Below, one piece after another: positions 18,641-43,572 of a stretch of 64,000 nt of DNA. The notes below the pieces were generated by a model. It saw nothing but the letters and a program-made list of their open reading frames with translations, was not told the origin of the DNA and ran no database searches. Position numbers and translations under genes: made by a program. The stretch's first letter is position 1, and each line of letters begins with the position of its first letter. This DNA comes from a virus. Location of the stretch: UHGV virus genome UHGV-1376088. One strand, 5' to 3'.

Positions 18641-18658
18641 GTGTCGGTTTCCCTGTGG
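18641..18658 (+). promoter_or_regulatory. GTGTCGGT-N5-TGTGG box
   Basis: Copy 1 of the conserved motif, about 45 bp upstream of the 18705 start. Confidence 0.5.
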
Positions 18659-18704
18659 AGACAGGGTTTCCTGTCGTTTTCAATTTCTTTTCGGAGGCTC
18701 CGTT

Positions 18705-19001
18705 ATGCGAGAGTTCGCAATTGCCCCAAATTCGCCATTTGCACAGTTGTGTGCAGGTGACATGTATGACGCCGTAGTTCGCGACGTCAAGTTTGCAATG
18801 CCGGTTGGTGTTGAGACCAAAGAGTCTGACATTCCCGGCGGTTTTCGTACCGTTGAGACGGAAGATGGCAATGCTGTTTTCTGTTCAGCGGTACGTTTGT
18901 CTGATAAACCCGCTCCTGGGTTTGTCTCAGTTGCATTATGGTATGCTGAGTATTCTCGGCTGTACCATATGGCTCGTGTCAGTGAGGATCATCCTTTCTG
19001 A
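18705..19001 (+). CDS. small early protein
   Basis: Internal ATG with a GGAGG RBS in ORF 18534; optimised codons. Confidence 0.5.
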   Translation: MREFAIAPNSPFAQLCAGDMYDAVVRDVKFAMPVGVETKESDIPGGFRTVETEDGNAVFCSAVRLSDKPAPGFVSVALWYAEYSRLYHMARVSEDHPF

Positions 19002-19029
19002 TACAATACAGGGATCCGGCACATCTATT

Positions 19030-19047
19030 GTGTCGGTTCTTTTACGA
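19030..19047 (+). promoter_or_regulatory. GTGTCGGT-N5-TACGA box
   Basis: Copy 2. It is the 3' arm of the hairpin GATCCGGCACA/TGTGTCGGTTC. Confidence 0.55.
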
Positions 19048-19072
19048 TAATAATTTTTCAATGGAGGTTGTT

Positions 19073-19249
19073 ATGAAATACAAAGATTTTTTGATCCGAT
19101 ACACCCTGGAAGATGGTTCTCGCAAGGACCGCCTCGTATCTTATATCGTTCCTAAGGATCTGGACGACGTATATGAGTATGCCGAAAATGTGGCGTGCAT
19201 GGAAGATTTCGAGGTTGTTGATATTGAAGTTAAGGGATTGGAAGACTGA
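19073..19249 (+). CDS. small early protein (MKY...)
   Basis: GGAGG RBS; 58 aa. Confidence 0.5.
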   Translation: MKYKDFLIRYTLEDGSRKDRLVSYIVPKDLDDVYEYAENVACMEDFEVVDIEVKGLED

Positions 19250-19452
19250 TGGTGTCATTTGAATTCAAATTGGCCTACGGCTCTATTGACGAGCTTAGGG
19301 CCGATTTGGGAAATAATAAAGAGATTTCCATATGGAAGCACTTCTTGGATGTAATTGTAAGTCATTCAGAAGATGATGATATGGTTATCTTTGAGATTCA
19401 GGACGATAATTCTTTGAAATTTGCTAGATACGAAGAGTTTTCGTTTATCTGA
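19249..19452 (+). CDS. small early protein
   Basis: ATGA overlap with the upstream gene; 67 aa, acidic. Confidence 0.5.
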   Translation: MVSFEFKLAYGSIDELRADLGNNKEISIWKHFLDVIVSHSEDDDMVIFEIQDDNSLKFARYEEFSFI

Positions 19453-19479
19453 ACAATGCAAGGACCGGCCCAGATTTTG

Positions 19480-19497
19480 GTGTCGGTTCTTTTATGG
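19480..19497 (+). promoter_or_regulatory. GTGTCGGT-N5-TATGG box
   Basis: Copy 3, preceded by the complementary sequence GGACCGGC. Confidence 0.55.
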
Positions 19498-19549
19498 AAG
19501 AGAAGAGTTGTTCTTCTCAATTATAATTTTAATAGCTATGGAGGCTAAA

Positions 19550-19897
19550 ATGAAATACGTTCCAACTAAAAACTTGTCGCAAGTATGGTATAACCTTGCC
19601 GAGCGCAAAGAATTTGAAGCGGCTGCTGAAGAGGCAGCAAAAGAAGAGTTCTTAAAAGAACTGAAAGATGAAGACTATCGATCAGTTGACGACTATAAGT
19701 CCTATCTTGCAGCAGAGTTTAGTGATGGTGACATCGCCCACGATATGTACGAATTGCAAGATGAACGCGATGATGAACAAGTCTTAGCTGGGCATCCGGA
19801 CATTACACCGGAGCAAAGCTTTAATCGTCTTGTAGAGAGCTATGTCAAAGATCTGTATGTACAGGCCCATTGGCAAGTCTTAGAGTCTCTTAAATAA
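19550..19897 (+). CDS. small early protein (MKY...)
   Basis: GGAGG RBS 6 nt upstream; 115 aa, acidic. Confidence 0.5.
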   Translation: MKYVPTKNLSQVWYNLAERKEFEAAAEEAAKEEFLKELKDEDYRSVDDYKSYLAAEFSDGDIAHDMYELQDERDDEQVLAGHPDITPEQSFNRLVESYVKDLYVQAHWQVLESLK

Positions 19898-20202
19898 CCT
19901 ACCAGCCGGCATCTGTAAAAGGATGTCGGTTATTTTATGACATATATGATTTCCCTGTAAGTTTTGCCGATACCTTGAATCTTGTTGCTCTTGGTATCGG
20001 TTTCTTTTTGGAAACATTTGAATCCTTTTACCTCCATAAACCTTTGGGCCACACTTGCTTTTTTATAGCGCAGTGTTGGCCCCCTTTTTTCCTCCCGCTG
20101 GACAGGTAGCAGGACATCAACGTGTTGCAACCACGCATATAAACCCGCTAAGACACCCACAGACTCCGTATTGAATATAGGCCACATAACATCAACGGTT
20201 TT

Positions 20203-41385: not shown

Positions 41386-41398
41386 TGTAAATTAAGAG

Positions 41399-41430
41399 GT
41401 CCCGACTTGTAGTCGGGGCTTTTCTATTTT
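41399..41430 (+). terminator. rho-independent terminator
   Basis: CCCGACT/AGTCGGG stem followed by GCTTTTCTATTTT. Confidence 0.6.
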
Positions 41431-41540
41431 AAGGTTATTAATGCCAAAGGTTTATAAATATGAAAGGCTTTTGATATTAGTGATACTTATTAGTGTAATA
41501 AACAATATATTGAAAAATATATTTTATTATTGGAGTGTGT

Positions 41541-42500
41541 ATGGATAAATATTTAGAGTTCGGCAAAATTGAGTCGAACGCAATGGAATTAAAAGAGTGG
41601 CAAGGGCCTGAGTTAAAAATTAAGTTTGATACCATGGAAGGATATTTGAATTTTCTTGAAAAAGCCGGGATTAAATTAGGTAGCTTTGAAGAAAATCATC
41701 TTATTACTCTAAAATCTAGATACGAGCTTTCTAAGGTGAAAGATCCAAGATCTGAAATTTTTAAACGCATAGAAGAGGGCTTAAGAAAAAGAGCATACAC
41801 AGGAAAACTGACCTTTGAGTCCAATATCCAAGAGATCGCGAAGTCCATATGGGGCAAAGATTCTATCTCTGGATATTTGAATATGTATCTTCCCTATATG
41901 ATTGGGATTCATGATTCTAACATAGTACGTAAAGATCCGATGACAATAGAAAGTGCCATTGAGATTGCAATGGACGAACTGGTTGATTATGATATTTTTC
42001 ATGAGTTTAAGGGCTTTGAATTTGATGTAAATAGTCCCGTAGAACTTCTTCACTACTTGATTTCACATTTATATCTATCACTTGCCGGAAGAATAGGAAG
42101 AGAAAAAGATTCTAAATTTAGCATGAAGCTATTTGATATTAAAAGTTCCGGTTTCCCTAACATTTCCGCGGATCGATTGGACATTGATCTTAAAATGCTC
42201 CCATCCTATGCATCGGAAGAATTCTATTATTACAATATTTCTACAATTAAAGAGGGGTTTAAATATTCGGTTAATGGGTCAATCCCTAAAGAACTTGAAA
42301 CCCCTGGACAGGCAATCATACTTAGATCAGACAAAATAGCAATTGATAGTAACAATCGCCATTTAGACAGGTCTCGTTATCTTAAGTTTCATAGTTATCA
42401 TGGTTATGATGAAACCGCAGAGAAGATTATTAAGATTCAAAAGAAAATTGAACTTTACTTCAAATGCCTGGTGCCTGACATCTTTGTAGACAATAATTAA
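41541..42500 (+). CDS. hypothetical protein (AT-rich accessory gene)
   Basis: 320 aa; GGAG RBS. Confidence 0.5.
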   Translation: MDKYLEFGKIESNAMELKEWQGPELKIKFDTMEGYLNFLEKAGIKLGSFEENHLITLKSRYELSKVKDPRSEIFKRIEEGLRKRAYTGKLTFESNIQEIAKSIWGKDSISGYLNMYLPYMIGIHDSNIVRKDPMTIESAIEIAMDELVDYDIFHEFKGFEFDVNSPVELLHYLISHLYLSLAGRIGREKDSKFSMKLFDIKSSGFPNISADRLDIDLKMLPSYASEEFYYYNISTIKEGFKYSVNGSIPKELETPGQAIILRSDKIAIDSNNRHLDRSRYLKFHSYHGYDETAEKIIKIQKKIELYFKCLVPDIFVDNN

Positions 42501-42513
42501 CTTTGGAGACTAT

Positions 42514-42828
42514 ATGAATTATCGTCTTTTTATTGATGATGAGCGTTTCCCCGTTACTCCTAATTGGTTTATTGCTCGAAATAGCTTTCAAGCGATTATG
42601 GCCTTAGAGTTGTATGGCATACCACAGGAAATTGCATTTGATCATGACCTTGGAGGACAGGATACATCTATCACTTTCATTAATAAGCTTGAAGAGCATA
42701 TGATTGATAATGGTTTAAAATTTCCTAAAGGTTTTATTTACACTGTACATAGCCAAAATCCAATAGGCGCGGCGAACATTATTTCTAAGATGGACGGGCT
42801 TATTAATTATTTCGGATTTGAAGAATAG
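42514..42828 (+). CDS. hypothetical protein
   Basis: 104 aa. Confidence 0.5.
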   Translation: MNYRLFIDDERFPVTPNWFIARNSFQAIMALELYGIPQEIAFDHDLGGQDTSITFINKLEEHMIDNGLKFPKGFIYTVHSQNPIGAANIISKMDGLINYFGFEE

Positions 42829-42846
42829 CTTAGAAAGGTAGTAAAA

Positions 42847-43122
42847 ATGAAATTAAAGGATATCAAAGTTGGTATGACTGTCGTTGACAAATATAGTAAT
42901 GAGTATATTGTCAAAGAAGTTGACAGAGACGATAGAATTATGCCGGTTATGTTGGAATGTGTAAAATTCGTGAAAAGTATTCCTATTCGAACGGTTGGTA
43001 ATGTAAATACTGGATGTAAAGGTGAAAGTTTTTACATATATAAATCCGGCAAAGTTGCTAGAAATGACGGTTACGATATTAAATGTATCACCGTGAAATC
43101 CCTTAAACTGAAAGGTAAATAA
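42847..43122 (+). CDS. hypothetical protein
   Basis: 91 aa. Confidence 0.5.
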   Translation: MKLKDIKVGMTVVDKYSNEYIVKEVDRDDRIMPVMLECVKFVKSIPIRTVGNVNTGCKGESFYIYKSGKVARNDGYDIKCITVKSLKLKGK

Positions 43123-43123
43123 A

Positions 43124-43537
43124 ATGGAATTAAGTCGTAATAGCTTACTATATAAATTGATGTGCTTTTATTGCACCCCGGCAGGAGATATTTGTCGATT
43201 CACTCGGCAATTGATCCCTTTGCTTATTATGTTATTGGTTCTTTTATTGGGAACAGTAGGATTCGGCATTTCTCTTTATTTAGGACTGTATGATATACCT
43301 CTTGAAAAAATGCATGGAATTCGTTTCTTCTTTCCTTTCTTTTCAGCTATAAGTCTTTTCATCCTTGCTGTAGGTATTTCTACACTTGCCATAATGTTTA
43401 TTATAGACTGGGTATTTGAAAAATTAGATAAGAAAAAAGTTGAAAATCCTAAGCTATTTAAAGAAGTGGCAAAGCGCTTAAATCCTATTAAAGCAAAGGC
43501 TGAAAAGCTCTGCATTAAAATTACTTACAAAGATTAA
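43124..43537 (+). CDS. membrane protein
   Basis: 137 aa with 3 TM helices. Confidence 0.5.
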   Translation: MELSRNSLLYKLMCFYCTPAGDICRFTRQLIPLLIMLLVLLLGTVGFGISLYLGLYDIPLEKMHGIRFFFPFFSAISLFILAVGISTLAIMFIIDWVFEKLDKKKVENPKLFKEVAKRLNPIKAKAEKLCIKITYKD

Positions 43538-43554
43538 TCCATGGACCGGCATAA

Positions 43555-43572
43555 TTGTCGGTCCTTTTATGA
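43555..43572 (+). promoter_or_regulatory. TTGTCGGT-N5-TATGA box
   Basis: Copy 17; 9-bp hairpin GGACCGGCA/TGTCGGTCC. Confidence 0.55.

Follow-up and report, generated by a model that had tools for sequence, protein, structure and literature searches.

The window, by which we mean the whole 64,000-nucleotide stretch analysed, belongs to an uncultivated phage of ~185 kb and contains a signal of ~20 bases that is repeated ~19 times between small genes, on the gene strand only. It also includes the genes for two large proteins, RNAP-1 and RNAP-2 (Table 1). RNAP-2 has the two-barrel RNA polymerase fold in a single chain. RNAP-1 is probably a distant paralog of RNAP-2: an hhalign comparison of A3 with A1 gave a probability of 95.1% (E 3.4e-8) over 184 columns around DxDGD, and residues R379, S382, K387 and D838/D840/G841/D842 are invariant. 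No box was found upstream of the RNAP-1 gene. The TerL of this phage is closest to those of Acinetobacter phage ME3 and Bacillus phage 0305phi8-36.

Table 1 Box units and RNA polymerase genes in the window. Box start is the first base of the box; exact denotes GTGTCGGT.
Feature	Coordinates	Strand	Box start	Description
RNAP-1, 1136 aa	15137..18547	+		motifs RVVSFHHLKGVVT and RDDADGD
Box unit	18641..18658	+	18641, exact	GTGTCGGT ttccc tgtGG; no box hairpin; separate structured element upstream; stem-loop 18660-18675 and T-run downstream
Box unit	19016..19047	+	19030, exact	hairpin CCGGCAC / GTGTCGG, box, T-run, TACGA
Box unit	19462..19497	+	19480, exact	hairpin GGACCGGC / GTCGGTTC, box, T-run, TATGG; then 5' stem-loop 19500-19518
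Variant copy	19904..19940	+	19923	hairpin AGCCGGCAT / ATGTCGGTT, T-run, TATGA; followed by ~260 nt without a convincing ORF
Degenerate copy GTATCGGT	19966..20011	+	19994	PWM 18.6 bits; long-loop hairpin GCCGATACC...GGTATCGGT; exact box in the L004 ortholog
Box unit	20166..20220	+	20203, exact	separate hairpin CCGTaTTGA...TCAACGG and TTTT upstream, then GTGTCGGT gcttt TATGA
Box unit	20568..20599	+	20582, exact	hairpin, box, T-run, TACGA
Box unit	21009..21045	+	21028, exact	hairpin TGGCCGGCAC / GTGTCGGTTA, box, T-run, TACGA
Box unit	21384..21421	+	21404, exact	hairpin ACCGGCAC / GTGTCGGT, box, T-run, TGTGG; then 5' stem-loop AAGGCA..TGCCTT
Box unit	22727..22767	+	22750, exact	hairpin ACACCGGCGC / GTGTCGGTGT, box, T-run, TATGA
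Weak copy	24344..24373	+	24356, exact	ORF-free region; TATAG in place of TAYGR
Box unit	24492..24509	+	24492, exact	ORF-free region; no hairpin; tatac TACGG
Box unit	24997..25029	+	25012, exact	ORF-free region; hairpin ACCGAC / GTCGGT, box, T-run, TACGG
Box unit	25959..25987	+	25970, exact	precedes first gene (26011) past ORF-free region
Box unit	27703..27736	+	27719, exact	hairpin AAACCGATAT / GTGTCGGTTT, box, T-run, TTTGG
Degenerate tandem GTGTCGGC-aaa-TTGTCGGT	29170..29198	+	29170, 29181	no T-run, no YGR; doubtful as a functional copy
Box unit	32511..32545	+	32528, exact	hairpin GGCCGGCGC / GTGTCGGTC, box, T-run, CGTGG; precedes 30-aa hydrophobic ORF (32573)
Box unit	32674..32709	+	32692, exact	hairpin TGACCGACAT / GTGTCGGTTG, box, TATGG; conserved G 34 nt before the RNA polymerase gene start (32742)
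RNAP-2, single-chain two-barrel RNA polymerase, 1147 aa	32742..36185	+		motifs RITSHTGLKGVTK and SHSDIDGD
Variant copy	43543..43572	+	43555	hairpin GGACCGGCA-taa-TTGTCGGTCC, T-run, TATGA

The box GTGTCGGT occurs in 15 exact copies, all of them on the plus strand, where 0.5 would be expected (shuffles: mean 0.50, maximum 3), and is accompanied by 4–5 degenerate copies; all copies are intergenic. A PWM that was trained on relatives only matched the plus strand 24 times and the minus strand 3 times, compared with 1.5 matches per strand in shuffled sequence. Both the recurrence of the box and its restriction to the plus strand, proposed in the initial annotation, were thus confirmed. The full unit reads T-n-GTGTCGGT-yn-TTTT-A-Y-G-R. 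Most of the positions originally listed stood, but one coordinate was corrected (GTGTCGGC starts at 29170, not 29169) and two copies had been missed, ATGTCGGT-tatttTATGA (19923) and the degenerate GTATCGGT. The TTGTCGGT variant is found at 43555 and, 3 nt after GTGTCGGC, at 29181. TAYGR or a near variant does follow after 5 nt in most copies, as had been described, with the exception of the poorly fitting 29170/29181 and with TTTGG (27719) as a further, unlisted variant. The box had been placed 20–45 bp before a start codon; the measured distance is 30–112 nt, mostly 30–70. Two related variants noted earlier in the tRNA array are present at slightly different coordinates, GTGTCGAG at 57188 and 57788, with AAGTGTCGAG starting at 57186 and 57786; the first is followed by a T-run and YG and the second is not.

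In 93 non-redundant instances the motif extends from -2 to +17, with Y at box+15 in 91, G at box+16 in 86 and R at box+17 in 88. Downstream of the conserved G, a stable stem-loop lies within the first 36 nt in 40 of 89 instances, and 29 of these begin 0–4 nt from the G. In the 22727..22767 unit the conserved G opens this stem, GAGG..CCTC, which has covaried to GGAG..CTCC in L008. No -35- or -10-like element is conserved across the 93 instances, and sigma-70-like sites are not enriched (47 vs 52.8±8.3). These observations bear on the idea that a phage activator helps host RNA polymerase to read the units. The box would then bind a factor encoded by the phage that takes over -35 recognition, as in MotA/AsiA-like sigma appropriation, and would be followed by a weak extended -10, TGnTAAAT. 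TGGTAAAT or TGATATAAAT does directly follow TAYG in a subset of copies, and the operon that follows the 32692 copy includes rIIA and rIIB, both middle genes in T4. Nevertheless, we consider host polymerase quite unlikely as the reader, since there is next to no information at positions +18 to +23 over the 93 instances, the box centre would lie at an atypical spacing, near -21 to -27, sigma-70-like sites show no enrichment and the phage has polymerases of its own.

Thirteen of the 19 copies have the box as the 3' arm of a hairpin (stems 6–10 bp), in line with the at least 11 copies first reported. The upstream arm pairs with the box in ~55–70% of copies, often through G·T, to give an 8–10 bp hairpin that reaches exactly to the T-run, and stems of at least 8 bp were found in 49 of 94 instances (4.1 expected). 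Because 26% of the hairpin pairs are G·T, only the plus strand can fold, which agrees with the earlier description of the hairpin as RNA-compatible. The partner base pairs with the variable position box+8 in 41/50 instances and with box+9 in 39/50, where shuffles gave 24.8 and 27.7 (0/2000), and pairing ends at box+10, where the T-run starts. These two positions covary with their partners, and the hairpin is therefore under selection.

About 40% of copies have no hairpin and still carry YGR at the fixed spacing (35/37, compared with 44/49 of hairpin copies). The strict T-run is more common with a hairpin (46/49 vs 24/37; p=0.0014, which is optimistic, as are our other p-values, because instances from related phages are not independent). 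A T-run that accompanies the hairpin and a YGR that is independent of it fit a terminator layered on a promoter. The hairpin-dependent promoter raised as an option in the initial annotation finds no support in the copies, including most of those in L078, that keep box, T-run and YGR without a hairpin. The promoters of the N4 virion RNAP also combine an early phage promoter, read by a phage polymerase, with a hairpin. In N4, whose enzyme is T7-like, the promoter must extrude a stem of 5–7 bp and a 3-nt loop from the template strand. Here, in contrast, the hairpin can form on the non-template strand or in RNA only, its loops span 3–16 nt, and it is missing from 40% of copies.

Like canonical rho-independent terminators, the units have a GC-rich 8–10 bp stem followed by a T-run, lie just past stop codons and show stem covariation; unlike them, they have an invariant 3' arm, a start-like motif conserved past the T-run and hairpin-less copies. 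Box, T-run and AYGR could be a sequence-specific termination or pause-release signal for a phage polymerase, with the hairpin as an enhancer and without promoter activity, comparable to T7 class II terminators or to the conserved 26-nt motif found where the P23-45 vRNAP terminates. The hairpin and T-run geometry, covariation that stops exactly at the T-run, the position of the units 17–33 nt after upstream stop codons and the enrichment of terminator-like sites (42 vs 13.9) are in its favour, and P23-45 shows that a conserved motif can mark the sites at which a two-barrel virion RNAP terminates (bioRxiv 10.1101/2022.12.01.518664). However, a signal for termination only seems unlikely, as the 24492 and 25970 copies have nothing upstream to terminate or precede the first gene past a 1.7-kb ORF-free stretch, hairpin-less copies keep the start-like Y(-1)G(+1)R, and stem-loops begin at the conserved G. 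Moreover, ordinary terminators without a box exist in the same genome (14703, 24292, ~41.4 kb and ~48.2 kb), and no other conserved promoter is left for these genes.

A role at the RNA level would make the hairpin and GUGUCGGU-U-run-AYGR the target of a phage endoribonuclease or of an RNA-binding regulator, similar to RegB/RegA or T7 RNase III sites, with early polycistronic RNA cleaved into units with protected ends. G·U pairs that leave only the plus-strand RNA foldable, the intergenic location of the sites and hairpins on both sides of the conserved AYGR would suit such a role, which we regard as very unlikely given the 40% of copies that have no hairpin, the Y(-1)R(+1) initiation character of the motif and the lack of an identified nuclease or RNA-binding candidate. 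Stems of 8–10 bp are also too short for RNase III.

The element is kept in related metagenomic phages of ~170–188 kb, where its conservation had been proposed as a check. In the L074 lineage the box has become GTGTCGAy and its 5' arm has co-changed to (G/A)TCGRCAC, with unchanged spacing to YGR. The L077/L078 lineage carries box, T-run and TGA, mostly without a hairpin, directly downstream of the RNAP-1 homolog. The box sequence does not simply follow polymerase divergence: L077/L078 (36% identity in RNAP-1 and 50% in RNAP-2) keep GTGTCGG, whereas L074 (46% in RNAP-2) has the altered box.

Of the 108 internal ends of homology blocks between relatives, 50 lie within ±40 nt of a box (5.2% expected). 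The 21009..21045 unit is a homology breakpoint in three relatives, and in L031 the sequence between two boxes is deleted. The block ends and the L031 deletion would also be expected if the repeats were for the most part sites at which gene cassettes recombine or move, and played no part in transcription themselves. This is highly improbable, because strict co-orientation with genes, fixed YGR spacing, hairpin covariation and the stop-to-start position are regulatory features, and in PeSLs (promoter-early stem-loops) recombination is secondary to promoter/terminator function (PMC2839356).

T4-type phages carry PeSLs, cassettes in which a terminator and a promoter are combined (Arbiol et al. 2010, PMC2839356; Comeau et al. 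2014, PMC4122927). Like the present units as read here, they are short repeated intergenic cassettes that join a stem-loop terminator to an early promoter, border small genes without an assigned function in a variable region and form junctions of modular shuffling among relatives. PeSL promoters, however, match the host sigma-70 -35/-10, and their stem-loop is separate from the promoter core. The present units lack a sigma-70 consensus and have the core itself as the 3' arm of their hairpin, and they belong to a phage that has RNA polymerases of its own and, by its TerL, is not T4-like. By this analogy, the units are best read as working like PeSL cassettes, outside that family.

Promoters of two-barrel RNAPs offer a second comparison. 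Late promoters carry T(-3)ATG(+1) in phiKZ (PMC7598289) and A(-11)ACA-6N-TA/G(+1) in AR9, early-promoter motifs of RNAP-encoding jumbo phages (vRNAP) can be found bioinformatically (PMC7598289), and P23-45 has separate promoter motifs for its two two-barrel RNAPs, vRNAP and nvRNAP (bioRxiv 10.1101/2022.12.01.518664; PMC10770324). As here, these motifs are compact and lineage-specific, lie no more than ~20 nt before the start, cluster ahead of early-type genes and are findable by sequence alone; start elements resemble TAYG, and phages with two paralogous two-barrel RNAPs occur. The phiKZ and AR9 enzymes are split into several subunits, whereas those described here are single chains of ~1140 aa. 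The upstream element is AT-rich in those systems and GC-rich in ours, where GTGTCGGT would double as a terminator arm. YonO of the Bacillus prophage SPbeta and the YonO-like RNAPs of phage 0305phi8-36 (PMC5467207; PMC7824862) are likewise single polypeptides of ~100–130 kDa with both DPBB barrels and occur in a phage lineage with a related terminase. YonO is linked to the present RNAPs through the fold alone, with no match obtained at the sequence level; the 2017 paper left the YonO promoter sequence undefined.

The fixed-spacing Y-G-R, the stem-loops at the conserved G, the absence of sigma-70 signals and the RNAPs in the window lead us to favour a phage-specific promoter combined with a terminator, and the units are probably compact phage-polymerase promoters that overlap intrinsic terminators. 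This retains the phage-specific promoter of the initial annotation, fused to a terminator and thus near its "terminator-reinitiation" option, and drops the hairpin dependence. Several observations count against it: the inferred 5' UTR at 43555 is only 14 nt (conserved G to ATG at 43585), 29170/29181 and 24356 have no good YGR, the AF2 model of RNAP-1 has a pLDDT of 41, no box directly precedes the RNAP-2 orthologs of L074 and L077, and the box change does not simply track polymerase divergence.

In the favoured reading, essentially all copies would be promoters for phage-specified transcription machinery; either of the phage's own single-chain two-barrel polymerases, RNAP-1 or RNAP-2, is the most probable reader, ahead of a modified host enzyme. 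The invariant GTGTCGGT would lie at about -16 to -9, followed by a T-rich, easily melted spacer at -8 to -3 and the start motif T(-3)A(-2)Y(-1)G(+1)R(+2), and the conserved G, 16 nt past the first base of the box, would be the first base of the RNA. In ~55–70% of copies a second layer, an intrinsic-type terminator for transcription arriving from upstream, would be added: the arm 5' of the box would pair with the box and the next two bases into an 8–10 bp hairpin in plus-strand RNA, and the T-run of the promoter would supply the U-tract. Because the promoter role fixes the box, only the 5' arm would be free to vary, and its many G·U pairs may also prevent a reverse-oriented box on the other strand. 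Many transcripts would start with a 5'-terminal stem-loop that is probably stabilising, and the repeated units would also serve as recombination junctions for swaps of small-gene cassettes among related phages.

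The conserved 8-mer GTGTCGGT (the box) is present in 15 copies in the window, all on the plus strand between 18641 and 32692, while 0.50 copies are expected (maximum of 3 in 100 shuffles). Near-variants are located at 29170/29181 and 43555. In a scan with a position weight matrix (PWM) that was built from related phages only, the window excluded, 24 sites on the plus strand scored 8 bits or more, versus 3 on the minus strand and 1.5 in shuffled sequence. The plus-strand recurrence described in the initial annotation was thus borne out, with coordinates right to within 1 nt. Its listed copies were all recovered, but two had been overlooked: ATGTCGGT at 19923, which has a perfect hairpin, a T-run and TATGA, and a degenerate copy, GTATCGGT, at 19994 that emerged from the PWM scan. 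As the annotation proposed, all copies are either intergenic or inside the ORF-free stretch of 24.24-26.0 kb. Between the preceding stop codon and the start of a hairpin-bearing copy there are 17-33 nt. Downstream of the box, the distance to the nearest start codon that has a ribosome-binding site is 30-112 nt, mostly 30-70, so that the earlier distance of 20-45 bp was too narrow. In the literature searched, the 8-mer appeared in primers only, and an Rfam scan of the window at gathering thresholds detected tRNAs and HOLDH only, with no match at the boxes. Coordinates of the main features are collected in the table.

Features of the window in and around the box region
Feature	Position (nt)	Strand	Description
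Intein-bearing ORF	7600-8928	-	442 aa; Intein_splicing/Hint, E 5e-16; homologous intein-bearing gene in the related locus L078
HOLDH RNA (RF02997)	9663-10027	-	Full length; 376.7 bits vs gathering 319.4, E 9e-102
Low-complexity stretch	14240-14460		G/T-rich, GTGTG-type; in the divergent stretch that separates RNAP-1 from the late module on the minus strand
RNAP-1	15137-18547	+	Candidate single-chain two-barrel RNA polymerase
Structured element	18596-18640 and 20162-20202		Common ~45-nt element (…CTCCGTA..GA.ATA..GG..C….CGGTT.TG) directly 5' of the box, replacing the usual box hairpin; conserved at both sites in relatives
Stem-loop	18660-18690		Directly 3' of the first box after RNAP-1; covarying, then a T-run; stem variants GACAGG/CCTGTC, GGTAGGA/TCCTACC, GGAGAGA/CTCTCC and GGAACGAA/TTCGTTCC (orthologs in loci L004, L012, L033, L049, L055, L059); resembles a start-proximal terminator/attenuator that would give a ~35-nt RNA
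Region after the 19923 box	19941-20200		~260 nt without a convincing ORF; conserved long-loop hairpin GCCGATACC…GGTATCGG, also in relatives; possible short non-coding transcript
ORF-free region	24241-26010		1.77 kb, low GC, three box copies; iteron-like repeats CAATATAGACAG / GTCTATATT in both orientations; 75-nt direct repeat at 24557 and 24808; composition shifts from A/C-rich to G/T-rich near 25.3-25.5 kb; could be a replication origin, a box-driven small-RNA cluster or a genome-end region
Hydrophobic mini-ORF	32573-32665	+	30 aa, MFKETPRFVLEAFMIAIIGAIVLCAIAGLQ; own box unit and ribosome-binding site; start region conserved in the related contig L074
RNAP-2	32742-36185	+	Candidate single-chain two-barrel RNA polymerase
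YadA-like trimeric autotransporter adhesin	39083-40876	+	Head, stalk and membrane-anchor domains; ortholog in L074
Methionyl-tRNA synthetase	45249-46913		Class I
tRNA region	49.7-57.9 kb		14 tRNA genes; anomalous anticodon call for the tRNA at 54075
Ro60/TROVE-vWA protein	50287-51882	+	Amid the tRNA genes
Box-like terminator hairpin	63887-63925		After the SPFH/Band-7 gene; ACCGTCAC…GTGGCGGT followed by TATTTTCTT; PWM 13.8 bits; architecture as in box units, without an exact box or YGR

Megablast of 25 kb against INPHARED gave no match, and hence there is no annotated close relative. Conservation in related phages, which had been set beforehand as a test of the box, was found in IMG/VR, where a scan with GTGTCGGTNNTTTTAYGR recovered the box family from contigs of ~107-188 kb, whose DNA is 67-84% identical to that of the window. 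Every GTGTCGGT in the fetched loci, whatever its flanks, was collected, giving 93 non-redundant instances with the consensus T(-2)-n-GTGTCGGT-y-n-T-T-T-T-A-Y-G-R. Counting from the first base of the box, T occupies +10 to +13 in 73-83 of the 93 instances, Y occupies +15 in 91, G +16 in 86 and R +17 in 88. Past about +22 the PWM holds no information, and neither a -35-like nor a -10-like hexamer was found in the 93 instances. Sigma-70 promoters (TTGACA, 16-18 nt, TATAAT) were not found at the boxes, and an extended -10 reading was not retained, as the PWM is uninformative at positions +18 to +23. Between 14 and 34 kb, sigma-70-like sites are not enriched (47 vs 52.8±8.3) and terminator-like sites are (42 vs 13.9±3.3). 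A host polymerase redirected to these units by a box-binding phage activator would also be compatible with the sequence. As expected of the promoter of a two-barrel RNA polymerase, the motif is conserved, lineage-specific and strand-specific and lies at a fixed distance upstream of gene starts, and the phage encodes such a polymerase, as indicated by the fold of RNAP-2 and the probable paralogy of RNAP-1. For the box-less genes (late module, 36-64 kb), k-mer enrichment and intergenic reading revealed no second promoter class.

The source of the window is a large phage, whose TerL has its best matches in Acinetobacter phage ME3 (41% identical) and Bacillus phage 0305phi8-36 (24%) and whose genes include rIIA/rIIB, a methionyl-tRNA synthetase, a Ro60-like protein and 14 tRNAs. 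Its YadA-like adhesin indicates a diderm host. Y RNAs are the usual partners of bacterial Ro60 proteins; the Rfam scan of the window found none. The two ORFs of ~1140 amino acids, RNAP-1 and RNAP-2, had no Pfam, PHROGs or PDB sequence match. A protein of a 186-kb contig, P0021, is 100% identical to RNAP-1. RNAP-2 was identified from fold comparison only: its AF2 model (pLDDT 84, pTM 0.79) matched RNAP second-largest subunits, β' and QDE-1 in Foldseek, with 41 matches at E≤1e-3. It includes the motifs RITSHTGLKGVTK and SHSDIDGD, which we take to resemble the β motif RHGNKGV and the β' motif NADFDGD respectively. RNAP-1 carries RVVSFHHLKGVVT and RDDADGD at the same spacing, and homologs down to 19% identity all retain its residues R379, S382, K387 and D838/D840/G841/D842. 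Direct BLASTP between the two was not significant and a first hhalign comparison was weak; a RNAP-1 profile from a deeper alignment (A3) aligned with that of RNAP-2 over 184 columns surrounding the catalytic loop (probability 95.1%, E 3.4e-8). An AF2 model of RNAP-1 from a shallow alignment (pLDDT 41) was not used.

A box unit is located just upstream of RNAP-2 in the window, its conserved G lying 34 nt ahead of the start codon, and no box was found upstream of the RNAP-1 gene. In L074 and L077, two related phages, RNAP-2 is preceded by an ordinary terminator only. The RNAP-2 homolog of ME3 consists of gp152 and gp154, split by the endonuclease gene gp153 (NC_041884.1, 222114-226849). The annotations of the three read hypothetical or endonuclease, so this cultured phage has an unannotated two-barrel RNA polymerase, possibly interrupted by an intron or intein. 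ME3 gp187 (1183 aa) was tested as a RNAP-1 homolog and rejected. YonO-like enzymes were reported in 0305phi8-36 by Iyer et al. (PMC7824862).

Stems of 8 bp or more with the box as their 3' arm are formed in 49 of 94 family instances, whereas 4.1 are expected with shuffled upstream sequence. In the window, 13 of 19 copies have stems of 6-10 bp, and the stem-loop folding energies range from -10 to -25 kcal/mol. The hairpin is missing in 37 of the 94 instances (~40%). G·T accounts for 26% of the stem pairs, with G commoner than A opposite the T's of the box, and when only Watson-Crick pairs are allowed the stems collapse to 5 bp or fewer in 81 of 94 instances, most to 1-4 bp. Therefore only the plus strand can fold, as RNA or as non-template DNA, in agreement with the RNA-compatible hairpin of the initial annotation. 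An RNA processing or binding site would be compatible with this sequence as well. Since the box itself is invariant, covariation was tested at the two variable bases that follow it. Box+8 pairs with the base 5' of the arm in 41 of 50 cases and box+9 in 39 of 50, compared with 24.8 and 27.7 in shuffles, none of 2000 of which was as high; the pairs are GC, AT, TA and GT. Pairing ends at box+10, where the T-run starts directly 3' of the stem, and judged from sequence this hairpin and T-run have the geometry of an intrinsic terminator. At the 20203 site, a separate hairpin (CCGTaTTGA…TCAACGG-TTTT) lies 5' of the box.

A strict T-run is present in 46 of 49 copies with the hairpin versus 24 of 37 without it (Fisher p=0.0014). 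Y15-G16-R17 is kept in 35 of 37 hairpin-less and 44 of 49 hairpin-bearing copies, a difference that is not significant. The box, the spacer and YGR thus make up a unit of their own, to which the hairpin and the strict T-run are an added layer.

L074, a 185.7-kb contig with a 46% identical RNAP-2 ortholog, includes zero GTGTCGGT and nine plus-strand GTGTCGAy boxes in an unchanged layout. Its 5' arm is altered to match, (G/A)TCGRCAC, and the Y-G-R (TTGAT) spacing is kept; both arms changed together, with the spacing retained. L077 and L078, in which RNAP-2 is 50% and the RNAP-1 homolog 36% identical, have, directly 3' of the RNAP-1 homolog, GTGTCGG[T/C/A] boxes followed by a T-run and TGA, most of which lack a hairpin. 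The box variant does not simply track polymerase divergence, as it changed in L074 and GTGTCGG was kept in L077/L078. More distant relatives, with RNAP-2 27-28% identical, have no box in the 23-kb loci L075 and L076, nor is there one in the last 50 kb of ME3, and these three stretches include no comparably enriched motif either. ME3 has a weak repeat, AAAACTCTTTTATGA, seen as AAAACTCTTT(T/A)ATG in three intergenic copies.

In relatives of 184 kb, exact matches to the long pattern are all in loci homologous to the box region of the window. When the window was compared with its relatives, 50 of 108 internal ends of homology blocks were found within ±40 nt of a box, an area that amounts to 5.2% of the region; many are at box offsets 0 to +17, and the nominal p is inflated because the ends are not independent. 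In the related locus L031, the three small genes between the 18641 and 19480 boxes are deleted, so that the upstream context of the former continues into the downstream context of the latter. Similar junction behaviour is seen in the promoter-early stem-loop (PeSL) cassettes of T4-type phages (PMC2839356, PMC4122927). Like PeSLs, the box units are repeated intergenic cassettes of a stem-loop and a candidate promoter that flank small ORFans and mark recombination junctions. However, the PeSL promoter is a sigma-70 -35/-10 promoter with AT-rich upstream sequence, while the box units have neither hexamer, and PeSLs belong to T4-like (Tevenvirinae) genomes, while the TerL of this phage is nearest to those of ME3 and 0305phi8-36. 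The element works like a PeSL cassette and lacks its defining sigma-70 feature and T4-like residence.

The sequence downstream of the conserved G is also structured. The first 36 nt fold stably (≤-5 kcal/mol) in 40 of 89 instances, in 29 of which the stem starts 0-4 nt from the G. At 22750, the stem beginning at the G shows covariation among relatives, from GAGG…CCTC to GGAG…CTCC. A pyrimidine-purine step with a stem-loop at the extreme 5' end would be the expected look of a transcription start.

The most economical reading is a composite signal of two parts. One would be a compact promoter in which the box, at about -16 to -9, is followed by a T-rich spacer and TAYG(+1); its reader would be phage-specified, with one of the two single-chain polymerases as the most likely enzyme. 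Overlapping it in just over half of the copies would be the other part, an intrinsic-type terminator, whose 3' arm is the promoter core and whose U-tract is the promoter spacer. Such an overlap would leave only the 3' arm invariant, giving one-sided hairpin conservation, would let the 5' arm drift through G·U-compatible changes, and would allow hairpin-less copies to retain all else. A sequence-specific terminator for a phage polymerase is likewise compatible with the sequence, and it has a precedent in the conserved 26-nt motif at termination sites of the P23-45 vRNAP (bioRxiv 10.1101/2022.12.01.518664).

As a candidate promoter, the box unit resembles the promoters of phage two-barrel RNA polymerases. 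N4-type promoters depend on an obligatory template-strand hairpin with a 5-7 bp stem and a 3-nt loop, whereas the box hairpin folds on the non-template strand only, has loops of 3-16 nt and is lacking in 37 of 94 instances. The late promoters of phiKZ have the start element T(-3)ATG(+1) (PMC7598289), which is matched by the T-A-Y-G of the box unit. The promoter of YonO was left undefined by a 2017 study (PMC5467207). By analogy with P23-45, phiKZ/AR9, N4 and crAss-like phages, the boxes may be read by a virion-delivered RNAP-1, RNAP-2 being an early product. We tentatively propose, as a possibility that is rather unlikely to hold in all its parts, that box-TAYG is the first sequence-defined promoter of a new clade of single-chain YonO-like two-barrel RNA polymerases; that virion RNAP-1, whose own gene is box-less, transcribes all box-led early units, here including the RNAP-2 gene; and that the overlapped 35-nt module ends the upstream transcript, starts the next one and also serves as a portable recombination cassette.

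Very few of the non-canonical two-barrel polymerases of phages have a defined promoter. Here a sharply defined candidate promoter of ~20 nt and two candidate polymerases are found in one genome, and this pairing therefore offers a directly testable system that needs no phage culture. An invariant promoter core that doubles as a terminator arm would be an unusually economical regulatory design. The element marks points of gene-cassette exchange in an abundant metagenomic phage family of ~170-188 kb. It could be used to recognise the early region when these genomes are annotated, and could supply orthogonal promoter/polymerase parts.
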